Assembly (NCBI RefSeq): GCF_043950625.1
Contig: NZ_CP171007.1
Source of the DNA: Alkanindiges sp. WGS2144
GTDB lineage: Bacteria > Pseudomonadota > Gammaproteobacteria > Pseudomonadales > Moraxellaceae
Strand: one strand, 5' to 3'
Length of the DNA: 32,000 nucleotides
The notes under the pieces were generated by a model, which did no database searches, was not told the origin of the DNA, and was given only the letters and a program-made list of their open reading frames with translations. Position numbers and translations under genes: made by a program. Positions 3,684 through 27,200 of the stretch are shown here, piece after piece. Numbering within the stretch: position 1 is the first letter of the stretch; each line of letters opens with the position of its first letter.

Positions 3684-3759
3684 GCGTTTGTTCTAGAATT
3701 AAAAAACTTGTGTTTAGACAATATAGTTTTAAACTGAACATTAAAGTTGTAAACCAAAT

Positions 3760-3798
3760 AAACCCAGCTATACTGATTAAAAAGTAGGCTGGGTTTTT
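3760..3798 (+). terminator. Rho-independent terminator downstream of glmS
   Basis: AAACCCAGC (3760-3768) pairs perfectly with GCTGGGTTT (3788-3796). An inner TACT/AGTA pairing extends the stem, and the structure runs into a T5 tract (3794-3798). It starts 77 bp after the glmS stop. Confidence 0.7.
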
Positions 3799-3909: not shown

Positions 3910-4827
3910 TTAAGAATAATACAAGCGCCTTAATTTTGAAAATTTATCCAGCTGTTTTAAAAAACCTTCAAAATAATCTTTCTGTTTTTCTTCAGTGCGA
4001 TAGCCTGCATATAGCGTCCGACGCAAGCCCTGTGGGGAAACACAATCCAAACGGCGCGAGGTAACCCAGCCTTTTTGCTCATATTCATTCACCACCCAGT
4101 CAGGCAATGCGGCAATACCACGCCCACTGGCAACCAGTTGAATGAGCATCTGGGTTAAATCGGTAGTCCGAATGGCTTTGGGCTGAATATTGGCAGGAAT
4201 AAATAATTCCAACATAATGTCTAAACGGTGTTTATCCACGGGATAAGTGACCAGGGTTTCTTCTGCCAATTCCTGTACCGTAATGTCTTTTGCGCGTGCA
4301 AGCGGATGTGTACTTGATAAAACTAGTCGTGATTCATATTCAAATACTGGAAAATATTCTATACCTTTTAATGCAATGGGATCAGCCGTAATTAGTAAAT
4401 CAAACTCGCCTGTTTGCAGCAGCTCATGGGGATTTGCCTCAAAACCAGAAGCAAAATCCAGGTCTACATCTGGATATTGCTGGCGGTACTGATTCAACAA
4501 AGGCATGAGCCAGTCAAAACAGCTATGACATTCCGAGGAAAACACAATCCGGCCGGTTTGGCCGTGCACGATCCGGGTAATATCACTTTGCGCTATTTGA
4601 ACTTGGGGCAAGATTTCATCCGCAAGTTTTAGCAGGCGTTGCCCAACATTTGAAAAACTCACTGGGCGCGTTTTACGATTGACTACTTCTACACCAAACC
4701 ACTGGTCTAATTCCCGCAATTGATGGGATAAAGCCGAAGGCGTTAAACATAAATCACTGGCGGCTGAAACCAGAGAACCATGCTCTCTTAAGGCAATTAA
4801 AGTTTTTAAATGTCGAAGTTCAAGCAT
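3910..4827 (-). CDS. metR: LysR-family transcriptional regulator, MetR-like
   Basis: 305 aa. The N-terminal wHTH (LELRHLKTLIALREHGSLVSAASDLCLTPSALSHQLRELDQWFG) closely parallels E. coli MetR ([39 protein letters not shown]). It sits at the end of a same-strand methionine-synthase cluster. Confidence 0.85.
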   Translation of the reverse strand: MLELRHLKTLIALREHGSLVSAASDLCLTPSALSHQLRELDQWFGVEVVNRKTRPVSFSNVGQRLLKLADEILPQVQIAQSDITRIVHGQTGRIVFSSECHSCFDWLMPLLNQYRQQYPDVDLDFASGFEANPHELLQTGEFDLLITADPIALKGIEYFPVFEYESRLVLSSTHPLARAKDITVQELAEETLVTYPVDKHRLDIMLELFIPANIQPKAIRTTDLTQMLIQLVASGRGIAALPDWVVNEYEQKGWVTSRRLDCVSPQGLRRTLYAGYRTEEKQKDYFEGFLKQLDKFSKLRRLYYS

Positions 4828-4963
4828 GGTTTATATTCCAAAAATGCATTTCATTTTCGCCCTAGCATAACTGACGCTTTTGAAAATAAAATAAGTCTTA
4901 CTCAGCTTTTAAAAGAAGTGGCTCCAGCTGGTGTGGCTGCCTTTTAGCACCATTTCAAGAACT

Positions 4964-5764
4964 TCATACAAAGCCTTTAAAAATAAAGTAGCAGCCAATG
5001 GCAGTTAGTAAAGCTGCAAAACATTTTTTTAACATGGCTGGTGATAGTGCATGTGCGGCTTTTGCGCCTAATTTGGCGGTAAAAAAGCTCATGACACTGA
5101 TGCCAATAAATGCATAAATATGAACGTAGCCAATGCTGTTGGAGATCAAAACCTTGTCCTGTACCCCAAAAAACATAAAGCCCAGCGCACCAGCGAGTGC
5201 AATGGGTAAACCACACGCTGCCGAGGTGCCCACTGCTTTTTGCATGACCACACCATGATGATTCAGATACGGTACGGTTAAACTGCCGCCGCCAATGCCA
5301 AAAATGGCTGATGCAACACCGATTATCCCGCCTGCCGCTACCTGTTTGGGCATGGATGGCAGCGTTTTACTTTGATCGACCACCTTTTTTGCGCCAACAA
5401 ACATGGTATAGGCCACCCAGATGGCAAATATACCGATAATTAATTGCAACCTGGCGCCAGATAATAATCCCGCAACACCTGCTCCTAAAAAGGCACCCAC
5501 CACTAACCCTGGTGCTAAATTTTTAAATACTGACCAGATGACGCCACCCTTTTTATGATGCGCCATGAGTGAGCTGATAGAGGTAACAATAATGGTTGCT
5601 AACGATGTCCCCAGTGCCAGATGCATCACCACGTCAGGATCATAGCCCATCTGGGTGAACACCACATATAAAAGCGGCACAATGATCAGGCCACCACCGA
5701 CTCCAAACAGACCCGCAGCAAATCCTGCCAGTGCACCAATTGCTAAAAAAATGATTAATTCCAC
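4964..5764 (-). CDS. TSUP / TauE-SafE family (DUF81) integral membrane permease
   Basis: 266 aa with a GTG start and about 8 hydrophobic helices. It carries the duplicated family signature G.GGG..(I/T)VP (FGVGGGLIIVPLL near the N-terminus, FGIGGGSLTVPYL in the second half). Confidence 0.85.
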   Translation of the reverse strand: MELIIFLAIGALAGFAAGLFGVGGGLIIVPLLYVVFTQMGYDPDVVMHLALGTSLATIIVTSISSLMAHHKKGGVIWSVFKNLAPGLVVGAFLGAGVAGLLSGARLQLIIGIFAIWVAYTMFVGAKKVVDQSKTLPSMPKQVAAGGIIGVASAIFGIGGGSLTVPYLNHHGVVMQKAVGTSAACGLPIALAGALGFMFFGVQDKVLISNSIGYVHIYAFIGISVMSFFTAKLGAKAAHALSPAMLKKCFAALLTAIGCYFIFKGFV

Positions 5765-5835
5765 GATAATGAAGAGTTCCAGAATAGTTTGCTAAAGTAT
5801 TTTGGGTTGAATAGACAGTTCAATAAAAGTCAGGT

Positions 5836-6339
5836 TTAAGCGTTTTCCGCCTGTTCCACCGCATGGCCCACGTGATGATAGCCGCGCTTAAAATAAACCA
5901 AACTTTGATCTTGGTTACTGTGCTGAATAGCAACAATCGGGCAAATAAAAATAGTGTGCGTGCCAACTTGCTGAATTTGCTCAATTTGACAGTCAAAACT
6001 GACCAGCGCATCCTGCAAAACCGGGGCGCCAGTTGTTAATTGTGTCCAAACGCCATGTTGAAAGCGTTCTTCCGGGCTCAGTCTGGATGAAAATACATTG
6101 GAAATATGCTGATGCTGTGCGGCTAACACATTGACGGATAAAATTTTATTTTCGATAAAATGGCCATGAGAACTAGACGCTTGATTCATACAAACCAGTA
6201 ATGTGGGCGGTGTATCAGTGACGCTGCACACCGCAGAGGCAGTAAATCCATAACGGCCAGACACGCCTGCCGTGGTCACCACACTGACTGCACTTGTTAG
6301 CAAAGACATTGCATTTCTAAAGTCTGTTGCTTCAACCAT
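5836..6339 (-). CDS. Flavin reductase domain protein (NAD(P)H:flavin oxidoreductase, HpaC/RutF-like)
   Basis: 167 aa. The start FRNAMSLLTSAVSVVTT...GFTASAVCSVTDTPPTLLVC matches the Flavin_Reduct domain signature. An AGGAA RBS lies 7 nt upstream of the ATG at 6339. Confidence 0.85.
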   Translation of the reverse strand: MVEATDFRNAMSLLTSAVSVVTTAGVSGRYGFTASAVCSVTDTPPTLLVCMNQASSSHGHFIENKILSVNVLAAQHQHISNVFSSRLSPEERFQHGVWTQLTTGAPVLQDALVSFDCQIEQIQQVGTHTIFICPIVAIQHSNQDQSLVYFKRGYHHVGHAVEQAENA

Positions 6340-6477
6340 CGCGTTGTTCCTAAATTAATCAGTTGCTTTGCCTTTAGATTTAGAGATCATGCGCGATTGG
6401 GTACAGGCACACCCTCTAAATAGGTTCCAAGTCAGACCAGAACAGCTAACCCGTGCCCATCACGCCATTGCTGCGGA

Positions 6478-7506
6478 CTAGGCGTTAAGTTCTTTGCGAA
6501 CGATTGCCGCGCCTGCACTTAAAGCCTTAAGTTTACCTCGGGCAACCTGACGCGATAAAGGAGCCATACCACAATTGGTACAAGGATAAAGCTTATCGGC
6601 ATCCACAAATTGCAGTGCCTTACGCAACGTATTGGCTACTTCCTCTGGGGTCTCAATCGTATTGCTGGCCACGTCAATGGCGCCCACCATCACTTTTTTA
6701 CCCCGGATCAGTTCAATCAGATCCATGGGCACATGCGAGTTGTGGCATTCGAGCGAAATAATGTCTACCTTGGATTTTTGCAACTTGGGGAAGGCCTCTT
6801 CGTATTGCCGCCACTCTGAACCCAGAGATTTTTTCCAGTCGGTATTGGCTTTAATGCCATAGCCATAACAAATATGTACCGCAGTTTCGCATTTTAAGCC
6901 TTCAAGTGCTCGCTCAAGGGTAGCAACGCCCCAGTCATTCACTTCATCAAAAAACACATTAAAGGCAGGCTCATCAAACTGGATGATATTAACCCCGGCA
7001 GCTTCTAGTTCTCTGGCTTCTTCATTTAAAATTTTGGCAAATTCCCAGGCCAGTTTTTCCCGGCTTTTGTAGTGGGCATCGTACAAGGTATCGATCATGG
7101 TCATTGGGCCGGGCAGTGCCCATTTGATCGGCTGGTCGGTGAGCGAGCGTAAAAACCGGGCGTCTTCAACAAACACTGGCTTTTGGCGACTGACCGCACC
7201 CACTACCGTCGGCACACTGGCCTCATAGCGATTGCGAATTTTGACGGTCTCGCGTTTTTTAAAGTCAACGCCATCAAGGTGTTCAATAAAGGTGGTGACA
7301 AAATGCTGGCGGGTTTGCTCGCCATCGCTGACAATATCAATCCCAGCGTGAAGTTGTTCGTGCAACGCCAAGCGTAACGCATCCTGTTTGCCTTCAATAA
7401 GCTGGTCACCCTGTAGTTTCCAGGGCGACCACAGTTTTTCAGGCTCGGCCAGCCAGGAGGGTTTAGGCAAGCTGCCAGAAGTCGACGTGGGGAGTAGTAT
7501 TTTCAT
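6478..7506 (-). CDS. mesD: Core-MetE (catalytic-domain-only) cobalamin-independent methionine synthase, MesD-type
   Basis: 342 aa from the ATG at 7506 (MKILLPTSTSGSLPKPSWLAEPE...). The track ORF starts 6 codons earlier at 7524 without a better RBS. It has only the C-terminal-half MetE fold, with Zn-ligand-type motifs AVHICYGY and YPCTNCGMAP. It lacks the roughly 380-aa N-terminal folate-binding half of full-length MetE. It lies immediately downstream of a DUF1852 gene. Confidence 0.85.
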   Translation of the reverse strand: MKILLPTSTSGSLPKPSWLAEPEKLWSPWKLQGDQLIEGKQDALRLALHEQLHAGIDIVSDGEQTRQHFVTTFIEHLDGVDFKKRETVKIRNRYEASVPTVVGAVSRQKPVFVEDARFLRSLTDQPIKWALPGPMTMIDTLYDAHYKSREKLAWEFAKILNEEARELEAAGVNIIQFDEPAFNVFFDEVNDWGVATLERALEGLKCETAVHICYGYGIKANTDWKKSLGSEWRQYEEAFPKLQKSKVDIISLECHNSHVPMDLIELIRGKKVMVGAIDVASNTIETPEEVANTLRKALQFVDADKLYPCTNCGMAPLSRQVARGKLKALSAGAAIVRKELNA

Positions 7507-7598
7507 TAAAAAGCGGCTCATCATCTATAAATTGGTTAATTAAGCCACTGAGCATTTTAGGCAAAGTGGCTTTAGGGAGTTCAATTCACTGTTTAACG

Positions 7599-8582
7599 CT
7601 AGGCCGCGAAATTCTTTGCCCATTGTTCAAGAGTGGCCTGGTGTGGTTTGATAAAGTGTTCTTCAACAAACTTTCCTTGCTCAATTGCCAGCCGGCTACG
7701 TTCTTCCCGATCATAAACAATGCGGGTGAGCGAATAATCCTGATGCTTTAAGCTGGGTTGATAGGATTTTCCTGCCACAGCGTTTGCATTGTAAATTTCA
7801 GGCCGGTAAATTCTTTGAAAGCTTTCCATGGTGCTGATGGTGCTAATCAGCTCAAGATTGCTGTAATCACTCAGCAAATCACCGGAAAAATAAAACGCCA
7901 GTGGTGCCACAGCATTGGCAGGCATGAAATAACGCACCTTTAGACCCATTTTTGCAAAATATTCATCGGTTAAAGAATATTCATCCTGCTGGTATTCAAT
8001 ACCTAACACAGGATGCCAATTGGTGGTGCGCTGATAGGTCTTGGTGTTGGAAACGCTAAGGCAAATCACTGGCGGTTTGTTAAAATTTTGTTTGTAAGTG
8101 ATTGAATTAATAAAGCTCTTGAATAGCTTGCCATGCAACTCGCCAAAGCCGTCTGGCGTGCTAAATTTGGGCTGGTTTTTATTATGTTCCAGCAGTAACA
8201 CGCTAAAATCATAATCCCGTACGTAAGAAGAAAAATTATTGCCGACAATACCCGCAATGCGCCGATTGGTCTGGTGATCGACAATCGTGGTTTTTAATAT
8301 TTCAATTAAGGGCAGGCCTTTGGTACTGCTTTGATCGTTCACCTCCATCTCAACGGAAATGATGTCAAGTTCCACAGAATAACGATCGCCTTTTGGATTG
8401 TCCCAGTGCGCCAAGTCATTAAAACGGTAATCAATCATCCTTAGGGTATTGCGCAGGTTCTCCTGGCGGCTCTCGCCTCTGGCCAAGTTGGCAAAGTTGG
8501 TGGTAATACGCGTATTGTCTGATGGACGATAGTGTTCATCAAAACGAATACTCTTAATCGTAAACGCAAACTCTTGATTCAT
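7599..8582 (-). CDS. mesX: DUF1852 protein (MesX, partner of MesD-type methionine synthase)
   Basis: 327 aa. The N-terminus FTIKSIRFDEHYRPSDNTRITTNFANLARGE is what I recognise as the DUF1852 family. It occupies the conserved position directly upstream of the short MetE-like gene. Confidence 0.8.
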   Translation of the reverse strand: MNQEFAFTIKSIRFDEHYRPSDNTRITTNFANLARGESRQENLRNTLRMIDYRFNDLAHWDNPKGDRYSVELDIISVEMEVNDQSSTKGLPLIEILKTTIVDHQTNRRIAGIVGNNFSSYVRDYDFSVLLLEHNKNQPKFSTPDGFGELHGKLFKSFINSITYKQNFNKPPVICLSVSNTKTYQRTTNWHPVLGIEYQQDEYSLTDEYFAKMGLKVRYFMPANAVAPLAFYFSGDLLSDYSNLELISTISTMESFQRIYRPEIYNANAVAGKSYQPSLKHQDYSLTRIVYDREERSRLAIEQGKFVEEHFIKPHQATLEQWAKNFAA

Positions 8583-8687
8583 GGTGATCTGCTACCCTAA
8601 TTTCCGAGATAAAACCTGAATTTCTGTATAGAGATATTTATACCTGAATCATGACATGAATAAAAATGATTTTATCTAACCACAAAG

Positions 8688-8700
8688 TGAATAAAATTCA
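8688..8700. promoter_or_regulatory. Putative MetR operator (TGAA-N5-TTCA) upstream of mesX
   Basis: TGAATAAAATTCA at 8688-8700 is an exact match to the palindromic MetR consensus TGAA-N5-TTCA. It is centred about 112 bp upstream of the mesX ATG. A half-matching copy, TGAATAAAAATGA, lies at 8657-8669, 31 bp away. Confidence 0.5.
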
Positions 8701-8838: not shown

Positions 8839-9234
8839 TTAGTCCAGCCGATTGGCAATATGTTCTAAAATGGCACAATCTGCCTGTTCATCACCAGAGC
8901 AGGCATTGGCTGAGGCCTGCAACATGTCAACCATGTCCTGCAAGCGGGAAATTTTTTGCTTAAGCGCTGCAATGTGCCCAAGTGCCAGGGTTTTTACCTC
9001 GGCACTATGACGGTTGGTATTTTTCCACAAGCCTACCAGCTCTTTCATTTGCTCGGAGGAAAATCCAAGTTCCCGCGCATGCTTTAAAAACTGTAGGGTT
9101 TTGAGATCCTGCGCTGAATACAGACGGTAGCCAGCTGCCGAACGGTGAGCCGGTTCAATCAGGCCAATTTCTTCATAATAGCGAATCATTTTGGCTGAGA
9201 TACCTGATAGTTTGGCTGCCTGACCGATATTCAT
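8839..9234 (-). CDS. cueR: Cu(I)-responsive MerR-family transcriptional regulator
   Basis: 131 aa. N-terminal MerR HTH (MNIGQAAKLSGISAKMIRYYEEIGLI) and the C-terminal metal loop CSGDEQADC (Cys-x7-Cys) characteristic of CueR. It lies directly downstream of copA on the same strand. Confidence 0.92.
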   Translation of the reverse strand: MNIGQAAKLSGISAKMIRYYEEIGLIEPAHRSAAGYRLYSAQDLKTLQFLKHARELGFSSEQMKELVGLWKNTNRHSAEVKTLALGHIAALKQKISRLQDMVDMLQASANACSGDEQADCAILEHIANRLD

Positions 9235-9353
9235 GCCATACCTCTGCGTGGTGATGGTTTAAGATCATAAAAAACCATCTTAAACCAAAACCCGGACTCA
9301 AGCATCAGCCACCATCAGGCAGTTGTGTTATGAAATAGTGCGCTCGGTCAACC

Positions 9354-11825
9354 TTATTGCACAGGTGCCCGAAAACGCTTGAGCCGTAGCGCATTGCCCA
9401 GTACGAATACCGAGGAGAGCGCCATGGCTCCAGCGGCAAACATGGGTGATAGCAATAACCCGGACACGGGATACAATAGCCCCGCAGCAATGGGGATCAG
9501 CGCAATATTATAAATAAAGGCCCAAAACAGGTTTTGGCGAATATTGCCAATGGTCGCCTTGCTTAAGGCAATGGCATTGGGTATGCCTTTGAGATTGCCG
9601 GACATGAGTACCACATCGGCTGCTTCAATGGCCACATCAGTGCCGGTGCCAATGGCCATGCCTACATCGGCCTGTGCTAGCGCGGGTGCATCATTAATGC
9701 CATCACCCACAAAGGCCAGCCGGCCATATTTTTGCTGCAACTCATGTACTTTTTCGACCTTACCTGCAGGTAAAACCTCCGCCACTACCTCATCAATATT
9801 TAGTTGTCTGGCAATGGCCTGTGCCGTATGCCGGTTGTCACCAGTAATCATGGCAACTTTGAGACCTAAAGCATGCAAGGCATCAACTGCTGCATAGGTG
9901 GTAGGCTTAATGGGATCAGCCACGGCAATAATAGCCGCGAGGGTTTGGTCAATTGCCACATAGAGCGGTGTTTTACCTTCTTCACCCAGCCGTGTGGCCT
10001 CGGCATTAAAGGCGCTGGTATCCAGACCGAGCTGGTGCATCAGGCGATCTGCCCCAATATGCAGCTGATGGCCGTCAACTTGCGCCTGTATGCCTGATCC
10101 GGTAATGGAGTCAAAAGCTGTGACTGATTGTAAGCTGATGTTTTCCTGTTGTGCTGCCTGCACAATGGCCGCAGCAATCGGATGCTCCGATTTGGCTTCA
10201 ACCGACGCCACCAGCATGAGTACCTGCTGACGCTCAAAGCCGGGTTGTACCTTAAAGTCAGTCAGGGTAGGCTTGCCTTCGGTTAAGGTGCCAGTTTTAT
10301 CCACGGCCACCACACGGGTTTCCTGTAGCAATTGTAAGGCCTCACCCTGACGAAACAGCACGCCCATTTCGGCACCGCGTCCGGTACCCACCATAATGGA
10401 TGTTGGCGTGGCAAGCCCCATGGCGCATGGGCAGGCAATAATCAGTACTGCCACCGCATTGACCAGCGCAAAACTCAGCGCAGGTTGTGGGCCGAACATG
10501 AGCCAGACTAAAAAGGTTATGAGTGCCACCAGCATGACCGCGGGCACAAACCACATGGTGATCTTGTCTACCAGTCCCTGAATGGGTAGCTTGGAACCTT
10601 GTGCCTGCTCTACCATGCGGATAATTTGTGCCAGCACCGAAGAAGAACCAACGGCTGTGGCACGGATGCTCAGGCTACCATTTTGGTTAATGGTACCGCC
10701 AATCACCTGATTGCCAGTGTGCTTTTCTACCGGAAGTGGTTCGCCGCTAATCATGGATTCATCAATATAGCTTTGACCCTCTAATATCTCGCCATCAACC
10801 GGGATGCGCTCACCGGGACGAATTTCCACCACTGTACCGCTAAGCACCTCACTGATGGGTACTTCTACCATGTGACCATCGCGCCGGATGCGTGCAGTTT
10901 TGGCCTGCATGCCCAGCAGATGGGTGATGGCCTGAGAGGTACGACCCTTGGCTTTGGCTTCAAAATAGCGCCCAAGCAAAATCAGGCTGACAATCACTGC
11001 CGCTGCCTCAAAATAAACGTGTACTGTACCTTGAGGCAAAACCTGCGGCATGAAAGTAGCCACGACAGAAAAGCTATAAGCGGCCAAAGTGCCTACCGCC
11101 ACCAGAGAGTTCATATCAGGTGCCAGTCGTATCAAAGCCGGAAAACCCTTTTGGTAAAAGCGTCGCCCTGGAAAAACCAGTACCAATGTGGTGAGTACAA
11201 ACTGCATGAGCCAGCTGGGATATTGTCCAATATGTTGTAGCACCCAGCCATGAAAAGCCGGAATCAGGTGCGAGCCCATTTCCAGAATAAACACCGGTAA
11301 AGCCAGCAGTAGGGAAATTATCAGGTCACGCTTGAGCTGCTGTTGCTCTAGGGTTTTTTTATCCTGCGCTTCTGCCTGATCCGGCACAGAAATCCTGGCG
11401 TCATAACCGGCTTTTTTAATGGCCTCAATCAAGTCGCTGGCCTGCACTGTGGCATTGGCTTGCACCCAGGCCTGTTCAGTGGCCAGATTAACCGTAGCAC
11501 TTTGCACGCCGTCTACTTTTTTTAAGGCTTTTTCTACCCGTGCGACACAGGAGGCACACGTCATGCCTTCAATGGACAGCGTCACCGGCTGGGCTGTTAC
11601 CACTTCAAAGCCTGCACGCTTTACTGCCTGGGATAAAGCATCCCGATCCAGTGGTTGTGCTGAAGTCACTAGCGCTTGTTCAGTGGCTAAATTCACACTG
11701 GCAGCTTGTACGCCATCTACTTTTTTAAGGGCTTTTTCCACCCGGCCTACGCAAGATGCACAGGTCATGCCTTCAATAGACAGTGTTTCACGATAGACAG
11801 GCTGTGTTGTGGCTTTGGAACCCAT
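9354..11825 (-). CDS. copA: Copper-translocating P1B-type ATPase with two N-terminal HMA domains
   Basis: 823 aa from the ATG at 11825 ([11 protein letters not shown]...). Two GMTCASC metal-binding domains, CPC transmembrane motif ([11 protein letters not shown]), DKTGTLT phosphorylation site, SEHPIA and GDGINDAP. The track's TTG start at 11903 lies upstream of the mapped promoter and was rejected. Confidence 0.97.
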
Positions 11826-11859
11826 AAAACACCTCGATAAAATTAACGACTTTGCATGC

Positions 11860-11890
11860 AGCATAAAGATTGACACAATGGGAAGGTCAA
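11860..11890 (-). promoter_or_regulatory. MerR/CueR-type promoter for copA (19-bp spacer)
   Basis: Read on the minus strand: TTGACC (11890-11885), a 19-bp spacer, then TATGCT (11865-11860). The -35 is fused to the CueR half-site ACCTTCC. The over-long 19-bp spacer is the MerR-family hallmark. Confidence 0.7.
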
Positions 11891-11910
11891 GCTTTTTTAT
11901 CAAAGCGGAT

Positions 11911-12449: not shown

Positions 12450-13208
12450 ATGAGTAAAGCGCTTCCCTTTGTTCTTGCAGTTGTTATTGCCGGGGGCGCA
12501 TTAACCCCGGTTTTTCTGGCCAAGCAGGCAGTACCGGGTCAGTCCAAAGGTGCATCAGGGCAACTGGCCGCGGCCAGCAATAGCCAGAAAATCAGTTATG
12601 CGCTGGGTTACCATTCCAGTTCACAAATTCCGGCAGATGTGGATACGGATGCCTTTGCCGATGGGATTCGTGATGGCAAATCTGGCAAGACCCCACGCTT
12701 TAGTGATGAGGAAATTGGTCAGGCTTTTATGGCTTACCAGCAGGAAATGCAGGCTGAACAACAGCAGTTACAACAACAGCCACAACAGGAGCAGTCAGCA
12801 GGGCAACAATCCCAGCAGGACAATAACGCTGCTGGTCAGCAGTTCCTGGCAGAAAATGCTAAAAAACCTGGGGTGATGACGACTCCTAGCGGCTTGCAGT
12901 ATCAGGTGATTCAGGAAGGAAACGGTAAAAAACCAACTGCTTCTTCTGAGGTCAAAGTACACTATGAAGGCAAGCTGATTGATGGCACGGTATTTGATAG
13001 CTCCATCAAGCGCGGTGAACCATTGGCATTCTTGTTAAATCAAGTGATCCCAGGCTGGACAGAAGGCCTGCAACTGATGAAAGAAGGCAGCAAATACCGC
13101 TTTTTTATTCCCCCTGAGCTTGGTTATGGTAAAGCTGGTGCCGGAGAAGCCATTCCCCCCAATAGTGTCCTGATTTTTGATGTGGAACTGCTGAAGGTTA
13201 GACCTTAA
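12450..13208 (+). CDS. FKBP-type peptidyl-prolyl cis-trans isomerase, Mip/FkpA-like, with Gln-rich linker
   Basis: 252 aa. N-terminal hydrophobic signal/anchor, an FKBP_N-like region (ISYALGY...), a low-complexity Q-rich stretch (QQEMQAEQQQLQQQPQQEQSAGQQSQQ), and a C-terminal FKBP domain (GLQYQVIQEGNG...VHYEGKLIDGTVFDSS...VIPGWTEGLQLM...LIFDVELL). Confidence 0.9.
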   Translation: MSKALPFVLAVVIAGGALTPVFLAKQAVPGQSKGASGQLAAASNSQKISYALGYHSSSQIPADVDTDAFADGIRDGKSGKTPRFSDEEIGQAFMAYQQEMQAEQQQLQQQPQQEQSAGQQSQQDNNAAGQQFLAENAKKPGVMTTPSGLQYQVIQEGNGKKPTASSEVKVHYEGKLIDGTVFDSSIKRGEPLAFLLNQVIPGWTEGLQLMKEGSKYRFFIPPELGYGKAGAGEAIPPNSVLIFDVELLKVRP

Positions 13209-13346: not shown

Positions 13347-14090
13347 ATGATGAAAAAATCCCTGATATGGATAAGCTGTGCAATGCTGGGTGTTTCCGGT
13401 TGTAGCCATGCGGTAAAACCTGCCAGTCAAGCAGTAGTCAAGCAGGAGCATAAGGCTACTACTGTAAATGACCAAAGCAGCGAGCTGCAAAAAGTAGGCT
13501 ATAGTTTTGGTTACCTGATGGGTAAAAGCAATGTTGATGCGGTAAAAGACCTGGATGTAAATAGCTTTGTTCAGGGTTTTCGTGATGGCTATGGAGGCCA
13601 GGCTGCTGTCTTAACCGAGGAGCAAATGAAAAACGCCCTGTTGCAGTACAAGCAAAATCAGGATGCACAGGAAATGAAGGCTTTTGAGCAGCTGGGCAAG
13701 GCCAATGCAGAGCAGGGCGCCGAGTTTTTACGTGACAACGGCAAAAAGGCCGGTGTGACCACCACAGCCAGCGGCCTGCAATATGAAGTCCTAAAACAGG
13801 GTAGTGGCAAACGTCCTACAGCAGATTCGCAAGTGACGGTGCATTATGAAGGTCGCCTGATCAACGGTACGGTATTTGATAGTTCAATTGATCGCGGTGA
13901 ACCGATTACTTTCCCGCTGGATCAGGTAATTGCTGGCTGGACAGAAGGTTTGCAACTGATGCAGGAAGGTGCCAAGTATCGCCTGTTTATTCCTGCAAAT
14001 CTGGCCTATGGCGAAACAGGTGCCGGGCAGACTGTTGGTGCCAATAGCACTTTAATTTTCGATGTGGAATTACTAAAAGTCGAAAAATAG
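13347..14090 (+). CDS. FKBP-type peptidyl-prolyl cis-trans isomerase, Mip/FkpA-like, probable lipoprotein
   Basis: 247 aa. Signal peptide ending in the lipobox-like LGVSGC, an FKBP_N region (VGYSFGYLMG) and an FKBP domain (GLQYEVLKQGSG...VHYEGRLINGTVFDSS...VIAGWTEGLQLM...LIFDVELL). It is a tandem paralog of the preceding gene. Confidence 0.9.
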   Translation: MMKKSLIWISCAMLGVSGCSHAVKPASQAVVKQEHKATTVNDQSSELQKVGYSFGYLMGKSNVDAVKDLDVNSFVQGFRDGYGGQAAVLTEEQMKNALLQYKQNQDAQEMKAFEQLGKANAEQGAEFLRDNGKKAGVTTTASGLQYEVLKQGSGKRPTADSQVTVHYEGRLINGTVFDSSIDRGEPITFPLDQVIAGWTEGLQLMQEGAKYRLFIPANLAYGETGAGQTVGANSTLIFDVELLKVEK

Positions 14091-24239: not shown

Positions 24240-27200
24240 ATGAATAAAATTTATCGTGTGGTATGGAATGCATCCTTAGGAATCTGGATTGCGGTTTCAG
24301 AGCTGGCTAGAAGTAAAACAAAAAATAACAGTCACATGGTAGGATCCATAGCGCAGCCGCAATCTGTTGCTATGCCCCATCATAGCTATACGGCACCTCC
24401 TTTTGCTTTAAAATATCTAGCCGCTATCTTAGCTGTTGGCAGTGTTATTAGTATAGTAAGCATTGTTCCGGCTTATGCTTTAGAGACCATTGCTGATGAC
24501 CTTGAAGTAACTGGTACTACGCAGCTAGATGATAAATTAACAGTAACCAAAAACGGTGCTGATATTACCGGTGATACCAAGATTACTGGTAAAAGCACCG
24601 TTACTAGTGATTCGTCTGTTGGCGGTAACTCTACAGTGGCTGGTAGTGCCACTATTGGTAATGGCTTAACGGTTAATAGCGGTACAACTTCTTTAAAAAA
24701 CACTAGTGTTGGTGGCACACTTAATGTAACTGGTGCCACTAATTTCAATAGTGCTACTGCAACAGGTGCTATTAAGGCATCCAGCTTAGAATCGACTGGA
24801 GCAACCAAAGTTGGTAATGGCCTAACCGTCAGCGCAGGCGGTGCCACGGTTACAGGTGATTCTAGTTTTTCCAATAAATTAAGCGTTACTGGGGCCACTA
24901 CATTAAATGGTGGTTTAACGGTAAACGGTGCTAATCTTAATAACCAAAAAATTATTGGACTGGCTAACGGTACCGCAGCTACTGATGCTGTAAATAAAGG
25001 CCAGTTGGATGAGATAGGGGCTACAGCAAATAAAGGTTGGAACCTCAATACAGCTAGTACAGGGTCTGGCACAGCTATTGGTAGCACCAAAACCAACGTT
25101 GCCCCTGATGATGAGGTAAAAATTATTGCCGGTGATAACGTTGCTATTACCCAAAGCGGTAAAAATATAACTGTAGCCACCAGCCAAAATCCAAATTTCA
25201 CCACGGTTACCACCACGGGCGCAGTGAACTCCAACTCACTGGCAGTAAGCAATAATGCCACCGTAGGCGGTACCCTGGGGGTAACGGGCGCAACCACACT
25301 CAAAAACACAGCGATAAATGGCACGCTTAACGTAACGGGAGCGACCACCCTAGCCAGTGCTACCGCAAGTGGAGCAATAAAAGCAGCAAGTTTAGAGTCT
25401 ACTGGTGCAACCAAAGTTGGCAATGGCTTAACCGTAACTGCTGGCGGGGCAAACATTACGGGTGACACTAAAGTCACTGGAAAATTAGAATCCACCAGTG
25501 ATGCCAAGGTGGGCGGTACTTTAGAGGTTACGGGAACCGCTAACCTTAAAAATGGCGCAGACGTTAATAATAAAAAAATAACCTCTGTTGCAGCTGGCAA
25601 TATTGCAGCGGCAAGCAGTACTGATGCAGTCAATGGTGGGCAGTTGTATACCGCTAACCAAAATATTGCCACTGCTTTGGGGACAACCTTAGATAGTACA
25701 GGTACATTAGTAGCTCCTACCTACAATGTATCAGATGGTAAGGGTGGGATGACCTCATTTGGTAATGTAAAAGATGCTGTAGAGTTTATTACCGGTGCCA
25801 ATACAGGGGCTGGTGCGGGTATTAAATACTTCCATGTGACCTCAACCGCAGCAGACTCACAAGCTCAAGGTAATGAGTCAATCGCTATTGGTCCACAGTC
25901 TGTTGCAAATGGAAATAGTACCGTTGCGATGGGCGATCAAGCACAAACGGTAAAAAACAACAGTATTAGCATTGGCTTAAAAGCAAAAACCAACGAAGTA
26001 TCCAGTATTGCCATTGGTCAAGAAGCATTAACGCAACAGGAAAACAGCATTGGGCTAGGTAAAAAAGCCATAGCAGCCGGAAAAGCGACTATTAGCATTG
26101 GTGAGGAGTCATTGGCGCAAGGTAGTGGTGCTGTGGCTATCGGCAAGCAGTCTGCCGCCATTCGCGATAATTCCACTGCCATTGGTGGTACCAGAGGCGT
26201 AGCCCGCACCCCTGTACAGACGACCGATCCTGCAGGAAGAATTATTGCGATCGATGGCGTGCCTGTCACCACTGATTCTAGTACGGCGGGTACTAGCACC
26301 GCTAATATTGTTGCTATTGATGGGGTGAGCGTTACCCCACAACAAGTAACCGATTTTTTGGCTACCTTGGCCAGTGGCGCCAACCTTGCAGCAGGGCAGT
26401 ATGCGCTAGCTGTGGGTACCTCCAACATGGCCACCGGTAAGTCCAGCGTTGCTGTAGGGGATTCTACACGAGCAACTGCAGAAGGCGCCATTGCAATGGG
26501 CAAGTCGGCCAGAGCAAGTAGCACCGATAGCATTGCCCTGGGCACGAGCAGTACGGTGTCGGCAGCTAGTGCGCTGGCGCTTGGTAAGAGTGCCATGGCT
26601 AGTGGCGATAGTGGCGTTGCTATAGGCAATACAGCGCAATCTAAACGTGCCGGTTCGGTAGCTGTTGGTCAAGGTGCAGTCACCGATGCTGACTATGCGG
26701 TATCTATCGGTTATCAGGCCGGTAAGGGCAGTAGTCAGGGAACCACCACTGACCGCACCGCCCACATTGCTATTGGTCAGCAGGCTGGACAAGAAGTTAC
26801 CGGCAATCAGAACATTGCGATTGGTGTTAATGCGGGCTCGAATCTTGCCAAAGCCGGTGGTAGTGCCGATGATAATATTGCTATAGGTACCAACGCTGGC
26901 GGCAATGTAAACGACCGTAATATTTCCATTGGTCGCGATAGCAATAAAAACGGTAGCGGCATTCTGCAAGATGCGGTAGCAGTGGGGTATGGTACCACGG
27001 CACTCAACGGTGCAACTGTTTTAGGCACGGGTGCACAAGCTCTTTTAAGTGGTAAAGACGCAGGTACTAATGCCGTTGCAGTAGGTAGCAATGCACAGGT
27101 CAGTGGTAATGGCGGCGTGGCACTCGGTTATAATACCGAGGCAGGCTCAGCCAACGTTGCCTTGGGCATGTCAAGTGTAGCGCTCAATAACTCTACTGGT

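Follow-up and report, generated by a model that had tools for sequence, protein, structure and literature searches.

Which genes, besides mesX and mesD themselves, take part in the methionine synthesis that these two carry out is a question raised by a five-gene block of Alkanindiges sp. WGS2144 (Moraxellaceae). The block lies at positions 3910-8700 of a 32,000-nucleotide stretch of contig NZ_CP171007.1, which we analysed as a whole and refer to as the window; its MesX and TSUP proteins are 100% identical to those of that genome. Listing of the open reading frames (ORFs) gave five consecutive genes on the minus strand, encoding MesX (DUF1852), MesD, a Flavin_Reduct protein, a TauE/TSUP permease and a MetR-like LysR regulator, with intergenic gaps from mesX down to the LysR gene of 74 or 92, 138, 71 and 136 bp. 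An initial annotation, made before any database search, had described the same genes and gaps, with which our ORF coordinates agree exactly, and had assigned the five families, every one of which was confirmed by profile searches. We consider it likely, with a probability of roughly 0.75, that the block is a MetR-controlled operon through which MesX and MesD convert homocysteine to methionine in an O2-dependent, folate- and cobalamin-independent manner, and that the reductase and the permease are helpers of this pathway that are not obligatory.

The two central proteins have been studied in other species. Mutants of Acinetobacter baylyi ADP1 in ACIAD3524 (mesX), metE (equivalent to mesD) and metR are methionine auxotrophs, and metR sits elsewhere in that genome, away from mesXD (de Berardinis et al., 2008; PMC2290942). 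Price, Deutschbauer and Arkin (2021; PMC7857596) named MesD and MesX and found that mesD together with mesX is enough to complement E. coli metE and metF mutants under aerobic conditions, with O2 strictly required and metF dispensable. Methionine synthesis that needs MesX and O2, and for which neither methyl-THF nor B12 is needed, is known for the proteins of A. baylyi and Sphingomonas koreensis (PMC2290942; PMC7857596), and our literature search found no later mechanistic papers on MesX. MesX/MesD is the only known aerobic methionine route without folate or B12, and it is present in hundreds of species, including members of Acinetobacter and Pseudomonas.

The window block is an ordinary member of this known system with unsolved chemistry; it is in itself one more copy, and the new points come from comparison. 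Its gene order mesX-mesD-flavin reductase is the same as in A. baylyi ADP1 (ACIAD3524, ACIAD3523 and the reductase ACIAD3522) and S. koreensis. Relative to the A. baylyi locus (L042 in our numbering of the compared loci), MesX is 78%, MesD 89% and the reductase 83% identical, the MesD value being over the ~72% identity that Price and colleagues, with 560 bits as the alternative threshold, applied relative to ACIAD3523. The domain make-up and zinc-site motifs of MesD are alike in the two systems, as are the MetR box and the promoter layout. The window differs from ADP1 in adding a TSUP gene and metR directly downstream on the same strand, whereas ADP1 has no TSUP gene within 10 kb, and in its leader upstream of mesX, which is an intermediate short form.

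We compared the block with a census of 80 species genomes that carry the loci most similar to the query, that is, the best 80 of at least 590 species representatives, all of them Proteobacteria. Phylogeny was handled by lineage collapse and a flank-diversity check only. Sequence within 2.5 kb of mesXD, 385 kb in total, was taken as the near zone and set against a far zone of 988 kb in total. mesX and mesD are paired in 79 of the 80 loci, and the remaining locus ends at a contig end.

Judged from these gene neighbourhoods, the association of TSUP genes with mesXD is real, and it appears to be unpublished in the papers searched: the words "TauE" and "permease" have 0 occurrences in the main text of Price et al. 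(PMC7857596). The window protein is a full-length PF01925 match (residues 7-259). Hidden Markov model (HMM) searches placed a TSUP gene directly beside mesXD in 9 of the 80 census genomes, compared with 2 matches farther out (raw binomial p ~3e-4), which bears out the enrichment that the initial annotation had proposed to look for. The adjacent permeases represent at least four lineages that are 35-40% mutually identical, and they occur in three arrangements: on the same strand after the reductase (two Cellvibrio, Janthinobacterium and a Moraxellaceae metagenome-assembled genome, MAG), divergent from mesX (Vibrio, two Grimontia and Colwellia) and convergent after mesD (Pseudoalteromonas). The gap between reductase and TSUP ranges from -4 to 71 bp; in one Cellvibrio locus (L011) the start of the TSUP gene, whose product is 36% identical to that of the window, overlaps the reductase stop by 4 bp.

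Closer and more distant relatives of these permeases were also placed. Among homologues of the window type that are at least 78% identical, all five that could be placed sit in mesX-mesD-flr-TSUP blocks (flr being the reductase gene), in Acinetobacter bohemicus, A. gerneri, A. indicus, Alkanindiges illinoisensis and the betaproteobacterium Chitinibacter. The A. indicus block (L096) has five genes and those of A. bohemicus, A. gerneri, Alkanindiges illinoisensis and Chitinibacter sp. FCG-7 have four, with the same gene order as in the window and short same-strand gaps; the flanking genes differ in every case, and the MesX proteins of A. bohemicus, A. gerneri and A. indicus are only 63-66% identical to that of the window. 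Two further Acinetobacter homologues at 76-77% identity, including a second A. gerneri copy, adjoin birA/coaX; given this location of the housekeeping TSUP, the mesXD-linked protein is a distinct paralogue, and its clade is separate from that of the Acinetobacter housekeeping copy. For the marine-type TSUP, a metagenome scan yielded 59 relatives that are 77-97% identical. All 54 of those whose upstream sequence extends to at least 700 bp have mesX (together with mesD where the contig allows) as their divergent neighbour. In the 26 of these loci with full flanks, the next genes outward represent 17 families at one end and 19 at the other, so the conserved unit is the trio rather than a larger syntenic block. 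None of these marine loci has a Flavin_Reduct gene.

We tentatively propose, at somewhat below even odds, that the TSUP belongs to the MesX/MesD system as its dedicated third or fourth component and carries a small molecule consumed or released by MesX. If so, its cargo would reveal the origin of the methionine methyl group, and a recurrent TSUP partner, apparently exclusive in marine lineages, would offer a new experimental handle on the substrate or by-product of MesX. Membership in this family does not by itself determine the transported compound: sulfite, sulfonates and alpha-ketobutyrate have each been associated with TSUP proteins, and glycine and acetate are possible further cargoes (PMC12671195), so the organosulfur cargo suggested from the family at the outset is a weak inference.

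The second helper, the flavin reductase, is more widespread. By tblastn, 44 of the 76 loci with enough sequence (~58%) have a Flavin_Reduct gene downstream of mesD in the same orientation, and an HMM search found one within 2.5 kb in 46 loci, compared with 1 match farther out; the enrichment anticipated for the reductase is thus present among the 80 genomes as well. The window protein is closest to RutF (TIGR03615; 216.1 bits, cutoff 254.75) and HpaC (TIGR02296; 165.3 bits, cutoff 205.95), and it falls under both cutoffs, placing it in the same superfamily as these enzymes while being neither of them. Adjacent reductases are 69-83% identical to that of the window in Moraxellaceae, Cellvibrio, Janthinobacterium and Vitreoscilla, 43-45% in Rhizobiales, and 26-31% in Pseudomonas, Achromobacter, Burkholderia and Herbaspirillum. 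Every type is PF01613 despite this divergence, and in the loci with divergent reductases MesD remains 86-91% and MesX 73-81% identical. Since the reductase diverges far more than mesXD and yet holds its slot, the pattern is best explained by repeated recruitment of a flavin reductase to the position after mesD, which would imply selection for some flavin reductase there.

A link between the reductase and reduced-flavin, O2-dependent chemistry by MesX, as put forward in the initial annotation, is explicit in Price et al. (2021; PMC7857596), who tied the adjacent reductases ACIAD3522 and Ga0059261_2931 to MesX redox chemistry; the adjacency enrichment behind this idea is real, while the idea is not new. 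The repeated recruitment strengthens this published hypothesis. Fitness or essentiality data for ACIAD3522 and Ga0059261_2931 were not found in the paper texts and supplements searched. PF01613 proteins of such a size usually act as the reductase partner in two-component monooxygenases. Like the two-component flavin monooxygenases RutA/RutF, HpaB/HpaC and SsuD/SsuE, the block has the gene of a small NAD(P)H:flavin reductase beside that of an O2-requiring enzyme. It differs from them in that MesX has no known oxygenase fold or PDB relative and would use flavin only putatively, and in that the product would be a methyl donor and not a hydroxylated substrate.

Two side observations concern the surroundings of the reductase and of mesXD in other genomes. 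Matches to C4 antisense RNA, of the P1/P7 phage immunity type, lie just after the reductase in Acinetobacter pittii (L002, 13028-13114) and Pseudomonas rubra (L038, 12579-12778), which suggests that prophage-like elements have inserted beside the cluster in these two species. In Enterobacterales (Raoultella and Pantoea), a DUF2058 gene adjoins mesXD on a side that varies by genus (L057 12798-13337; L073; L075, e.g. 9155-9694).

MesX itself matches PF08908 over its full length (616 bits; residues 1-322 against model positions 1-322 of 323) and belongs to a small family, with 325 representatives, mostly fragments, among 1.84 billion clusters at 50% identity. An AlphaFold2 model built from an 80-sequence alignment, whose members are 33-82% identical, was confident (predicted local distance difference test, pLDDT, 91.8; predicted template modelling score, pTM, 0.91), while a shallow alignment of 10 sequences that are ~80% identical gave a pLDDT of only 38.9. 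Foldseek detected no structural relatives of this model in the PDB (best E = 0.21, template modelling score <=0.16), and a profile search detected no solved homologues by sequence. As no PDB match was obtained, the predicted structure has no known oxygenase-component fold, whether the luciferase-like TIM barrel, the acyl-CoA-dehydrogenase-like or the glutathione-reductase-type fold of two-component oxygenases. The residues invariant across the aligned members include R25, T28, N29, N32, E94, S118, S119, R122, D123, D125, H150, Y183, Y208, Y231, E262, Y264, Y290, E294 and Q302. The lack of an invariant cysteine argues against an S-methyl-cysteine carrier, and the single invariant histidine argues against a classical His-rich iron site; as a conservation pattern, the set is compatible with flavin binding but does not demonstrate it.

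Distant relatives of MesX, at 33-42% identity, are encoded by solitary genes, the surrounding 6 kb being free of MesD genes (L093 6001-7086, L094 6001-7038, L095 6001-7002 and also L090 188-1198); among them is a member from a Verrucomicrobiales MAG. DUF1852 may thus have roles beyond partnering MesD, or the partner gene may lie elsewhere in these genomes. The Synechococcus homologue adjoins, at a contig end, a gene for a SulP transporter (Sulfate_transp and STAS domains) that directly follows it (L090 1704-3410), and another SulP gene lies a few kb from mesX in A. gerneri (L087/L088 8505-10801). SulP is a second anion-transporter family found near DUF1852 genes, in numbers too small to judge.

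Several observations weigh against our reading of the block. mesX and mesD alone work in E. coli (PMC7857596), so neither the reductase nor the TSUP is required. About 42% of loci have no adjacent reductase, and the sampled loci of this kind had no other reductase family beside mesXD, their neighbours being GNAT acetyltransferases, DUF2058, GFA, a histidine phosphatase and an ArsR-type regulator. No TSUP is adjacent in 71 of the 80 loci (~89%), and A. baylyi, A. pittii and A. bereziniae carry the reductase with no linked TSUP. Moreover, the near/far comparison for the TSUP rises to p ~0.06 once collapsed to four lineages (hand calculation), and the Acinetobacter housekeeping TSUP beside birA/coaX is 72-77% identical to the window protein, so that the linked copy may do nothing specific. 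The MesX model fits no known two-component flavin monooxygenase fold, flavin binding by MesX is putative, and its invariant set holds one histidine (H150) and no cysteine. The operon structure of the five-gene block is likewise putative, and the regulator scores 253 bits against its best NCBIfam match, MetR (NF011950), under the cutoff of 382, with the next family at 115. E. coli has its own flavin reductases and a TSUP homologue, and host flavin reductases can replace the dedicated one in two-component systems; such a substitution would explain why mesXD are sufficient there. Nevertheless, the description of the reductase and the TSUP as "missing parts" of the pathway in the initial annotation was overstated, given the rescue in E. 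coli and the share of loci without them. Its link to the TSUP was strengthened by the comparison, and the regulation by MetR is supported; taken together, the initial interpretation holds in part.

The absences, the closeness of the linked clade to the birA-linked copy, the function of mesXD in E. coli without a linked TSUP and the p value after collapse are all in keeping with a TSUP that is a bystander, a general transporter recently copied from the Moraxellaceae housekeeping gene and kept in place by synteny and joint horizontal transfer. We regard this as less likely than not, because four TSUP lineages are directly adjacent to mesXD in three orientations, the TSUP start overlaps the reductase stop in Cellvibrio, and all five close window-type homologues lie in the block across two proteobacterial classes. 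The 54 marine-type relatives, too, keep their place beside mesX although the outer flanks vary.

An alternative role for the reductase is less probable still. It could maintain the reduced state of the system or restore its activity, in the manner of flavodoxin with MetH, or shield an oxidation-prone zinc-thiolate enzyme, with MesX using another cofactor. Such a role would agree with the lack of detectable similarity between MesX and flavin-dependent oxygenase folds, with the loci that have no reductase beside mesXD, and with the weaker B12 co-regulation of the reductase in A. baumannii (-2.5 vs -8.3 log2, described below). We nonetheless hold it to be improbable, since RutF and HpaC are the closest models, PF01613 proteins of this size generally serve monooxygenases, and the block holds no other oxygenase candidate. 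The strict requirement for O2 points in the same direction (PMC7857596).

The reading of the block as a working MesX/MesD operon depends on MesD being a complete enzyme, and the sequence comparisons indicate that it is a genuine stand-alone core synthase. In profile searches it contains PF01717 (Meth_synt_2) alone, without Meth_synt_1, and it matches the "methionine synthase" model NF006589 end to end (702 bits, cutoff 392; model positions 1-341 of 342), in line with the initial description of a MetE-like protein of 342 amino acids comprising the catalytic half only. Model position 1 falls at MesD residue 7, so the ATG at 7506, which gives 342 amino acids, is the likelier start. The zinc/homocysteine-site motifs HICYGY, ISLECH and CTNCGM are present, with MetE positions assigned by motif and not by structural alignment, and same-length copies that are 82-92% identical follow mesX in 79 of the 80 census loci. 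That the protein is instead a degenerate piece of what was once a full-length metE, and the block no working synthase, a case raised at the outset as one that would overturn the reading, has its short length in its favour and nothing else, and we give it practically no weight in view of the end-to-end NF006589 match, the scores of full-length MetE models far under their cutoffs (118 vs 541 and 113 vs 930), the same-length census copies, the intactness of every zinc-site motif, and the 74-92 bp before mesD, which hold no Meth_synt_1 remnant and leave no room for a folate-binding half. Truncated MetE is therefore ruled out as an identity for MesD by domain content, NF006589 score and the census copies.

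Regulation of the block by MetR is supported by the promoter region of mesX. The perfect TGAA-N5-TTCA box reported upstream of the first gene, TGAATTTTATTCA, is the sole match in the window and is not significant by itself (0.6 expected; at least one match in 45 of 100 shuffles). Its position is backed by the census, in which a perfect box occurs within 250 bp upstream of mesX in 28 of the 80 loci, compared with ~0.7 expected (0.0085 per 250 bp). Moraxellaceae relatives have this box in the corresponding position, in some cases with a single mismatch, and their promoter layout is fixed: box 1, 8 nt, a weaker second box and then ATCATTTTTATTCATG-N8-GGTATAAAT, an element that is conserved in Moraxellaceae and in other loci. 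In its overall layout, the mesX promoter looks like an activator-dependent one. A sigma-70 consensus scan did not list it because its -35 is weak. MetR-like genes (at least 33% identity) lie within 2.5 kb of mesXD in 24 of the 80 loci, in varied positions, with 0 far matches, the LysR genes next to mesXD being 35-45% identical. A. indicus likewise has metR in tandem behind the TSUP gene (L096; MetR 87.5% identical), and Alkanindiges illinoisensis, A. bohemicus, A. gerneri and Chitinibacter have no metR in this place.

The system is also under B12 control in relatives of the window. A transcriptome of Acinetobacter baumannii from 2026 recorded a ~300-fold B12 repression, with effects of -8.3 log2 units for mesX, -6.6 for mesD and -2.5 for the adjacent flavin reductase (PMC12892962). 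We found no cobalamin riboswitch upstream of mesX in the window, in seven Moraxellaceae loci or, at a lax threshold, in the A. pittii leader, and riboswitch control of mesX was therefore rejected for the window and its Moraxellaceae relatives. Given this absence, we read the repression in A. baumannii as indirect: active MetH would lower the level of homocysteine, the co-activator of MetR. The window shares with E. coli metE-metR a MetR-like LysR regulator and a TGAA-N5-TTCA box upstream of the gene of a B12-independent synthase, and the B12 repression of its relatives without a riboswitch is a further point in common. It differs in that metR lies downstream in tandem and is not divergent, and in that its synthase has no folate-binding half and, by analogy with the characterized MesD proteins, would need MesX and O2.

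Two observations in other species touch on B12. In Rhizobium tropici, the region ~320 bp upstream of mesX contains a cobalamin riboswitch (127 bits; L048, 9125-9334, minus strand). It is on the strand opposite to mesX and presumably controls a divergent neighbouring gene. In A. indicus (L096; 1-201 and 7099-8484), the block lies ~2 kb downstream of queH, the gene of a B12-independent epoxyqueuosine reductase, with an MFS transporter gene between them and a phage-type integrase after the block. Both queH and mesXD rank among the genes with the strongest B12 repression in A. baumannii (PMC12892962), and the proximity of the two in A. indicus hints at a shared B12-sparing response.

The leader between promoter and mesX shows DNA sequence conservation that extends over alpha-, beta- and gammaproteobacteria (loci L002, L004, L030, L036, L040, L048, L055, L056, L064 and others, ~30-190 nt upstream of mesX), with the rough consensus GACTGCTGAR...AACCAGAAAAG...CTGAAAAGCAAGAAATA..TTCAGGTTTTATCTCAGAAATTAGGGTGCCAGATCACAATG. 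In many species this leader is long (130-190 nt); the window keeps the last ~45 nt of it and A. baylyi less. No Rfam family matched the leader and RNAalifold returned no consensus structure for it. A hand-drawn helix was paired at 68.6% compared with 66.5% in shuffles, with non-significant covariation, and the leaders of some Pseudomonas form very stable hairpins (z down to -5.8). A conserved RNA structure was consequently not established, and the leader may be an undescribed cis-regulatory element.

If the block works as a MetR-controlled MesX/MesD operon, its action could be pictured in six steps. MetR would bind its box 118 bp upstream of mesX and activate a promoter with a good -10 and a poor -35, an activation suggested by the biology of E. 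coli MetR and by the auxotrophy of the ADP1 metR mutant. The transcript would span mesX and mesD and would probably read through the reductase and TSUP genes, since a consensus scan found no terminator-like sites in the three internal gaps; expression is probably lower downstream, which is supported by the A. baumannii reductase being co-repressed by B12 to a lesser degree than mesXD. The reductase, as expected of the HpaC/RutF type, would then produce free reduced flavin from NAD(P)H. With this flavin and O2, MesX may generate a methyl donor, or load one, starting from a common central metabolite; the requirement for MesX and O2 has been demonstrated (PMC7857596), whereas the use of flavin and the nature of the donor are putative. 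MesD, if it follows the chemistry of MetE, would activate homocysteine on its zinc site (His, Cys, Glu, Cys) and take up the methyl group. Finally, the TSUP may move a small anion tied to the chemistry of MesX and MesD, export of a by-product being likelier than import of a precursor. The coordinates of the features are given in Table 1.

Table 1. Features of the mesXD block and its boundaries in the window (positions as in the 32,000-nucleotide stretch).
Feature	Position	Strand	Remarks
MetR box TGAATTTTATTCA (TGAA-N5-TTCA)	8688-8700	-	118 bp upstream of the mesX ATG
Degenerate second half-site TTAGATAAAATCA	8667-8679	-	Relatives have TGAAAYTAAATCA; proposed from conserved spacing, 8 nt after box 1
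Poor -35 TTTTAT	8660-8665	-	As expected for an activator-dependent promoter
Putative -10 TATAAA within conserved GGTATAAAT	8637-8642	-	Predicted
Short 5' leader with conserved string AAATTCAGGTTTTATCTCGGAAATTAGGGTAGCAGATCACC	8583-8626	-	3' part of a longer conserved leader
mesX (DUF1852, PF08908 "putative oxygenase MesX")	7599-8582	-	327 amino acids; PF08908 616 bits
mesD, core (catalytic-domain-only) methionine synthase	6478-7524	-	348 amino acids, or 342 from the ATG at 7506
NAD(P)H:flavin reductase, HpaC/RutF type (PF01613)	5836-6339	-	167 amino acids; Flavin_Reduct 131 bits
TSUP (TauE/SafE/YfcA family) permease	4964-5764	-	266 amino acids, GTG start; TauE 174 bits
MetR-like LysR-type transcriptional activator	3910-4827	-	305 amino acids; HTH_1 and LysR_substrate
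Hairpin AAACCCAGC...GCTGGGTTT	3751-3796	.	Between convergent metR and glmS

Downstream, the block converges with glmS, and the hairpin between the two (-16.5 kcal/mol, z = -3.4; equally stable in 1 of 200 shuffles) probably terminates transcription from both directions and marks the end of the block. The genes directly upstream, in the same orientation, are cueR and that of a copA-type ATPase, which form a copper-efflux module unrelated to mesXD (8839-11903, minus strand). Its CueR-type sensor matches TIGR02044 above the cutoff (165 bits), and its ATPase, of 849 amino acids, has two N-terminal CxxC metal-binding domains. Farther along the window, two FKBP-type peptidyl-prolyl isomerase genes (FKBP_N and FKBP_C domains) stand in tandem on the plus strand (12450-13208 and 13347-14090), apparently as a local duplication. 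An ORF of 399 amino acids with no Pfam match (24473-25672, minus strand) coincides with the kilobase of lowest guanine and cytosine content in the window (0.386 compared with ~0.48) and may be foreign DNA.

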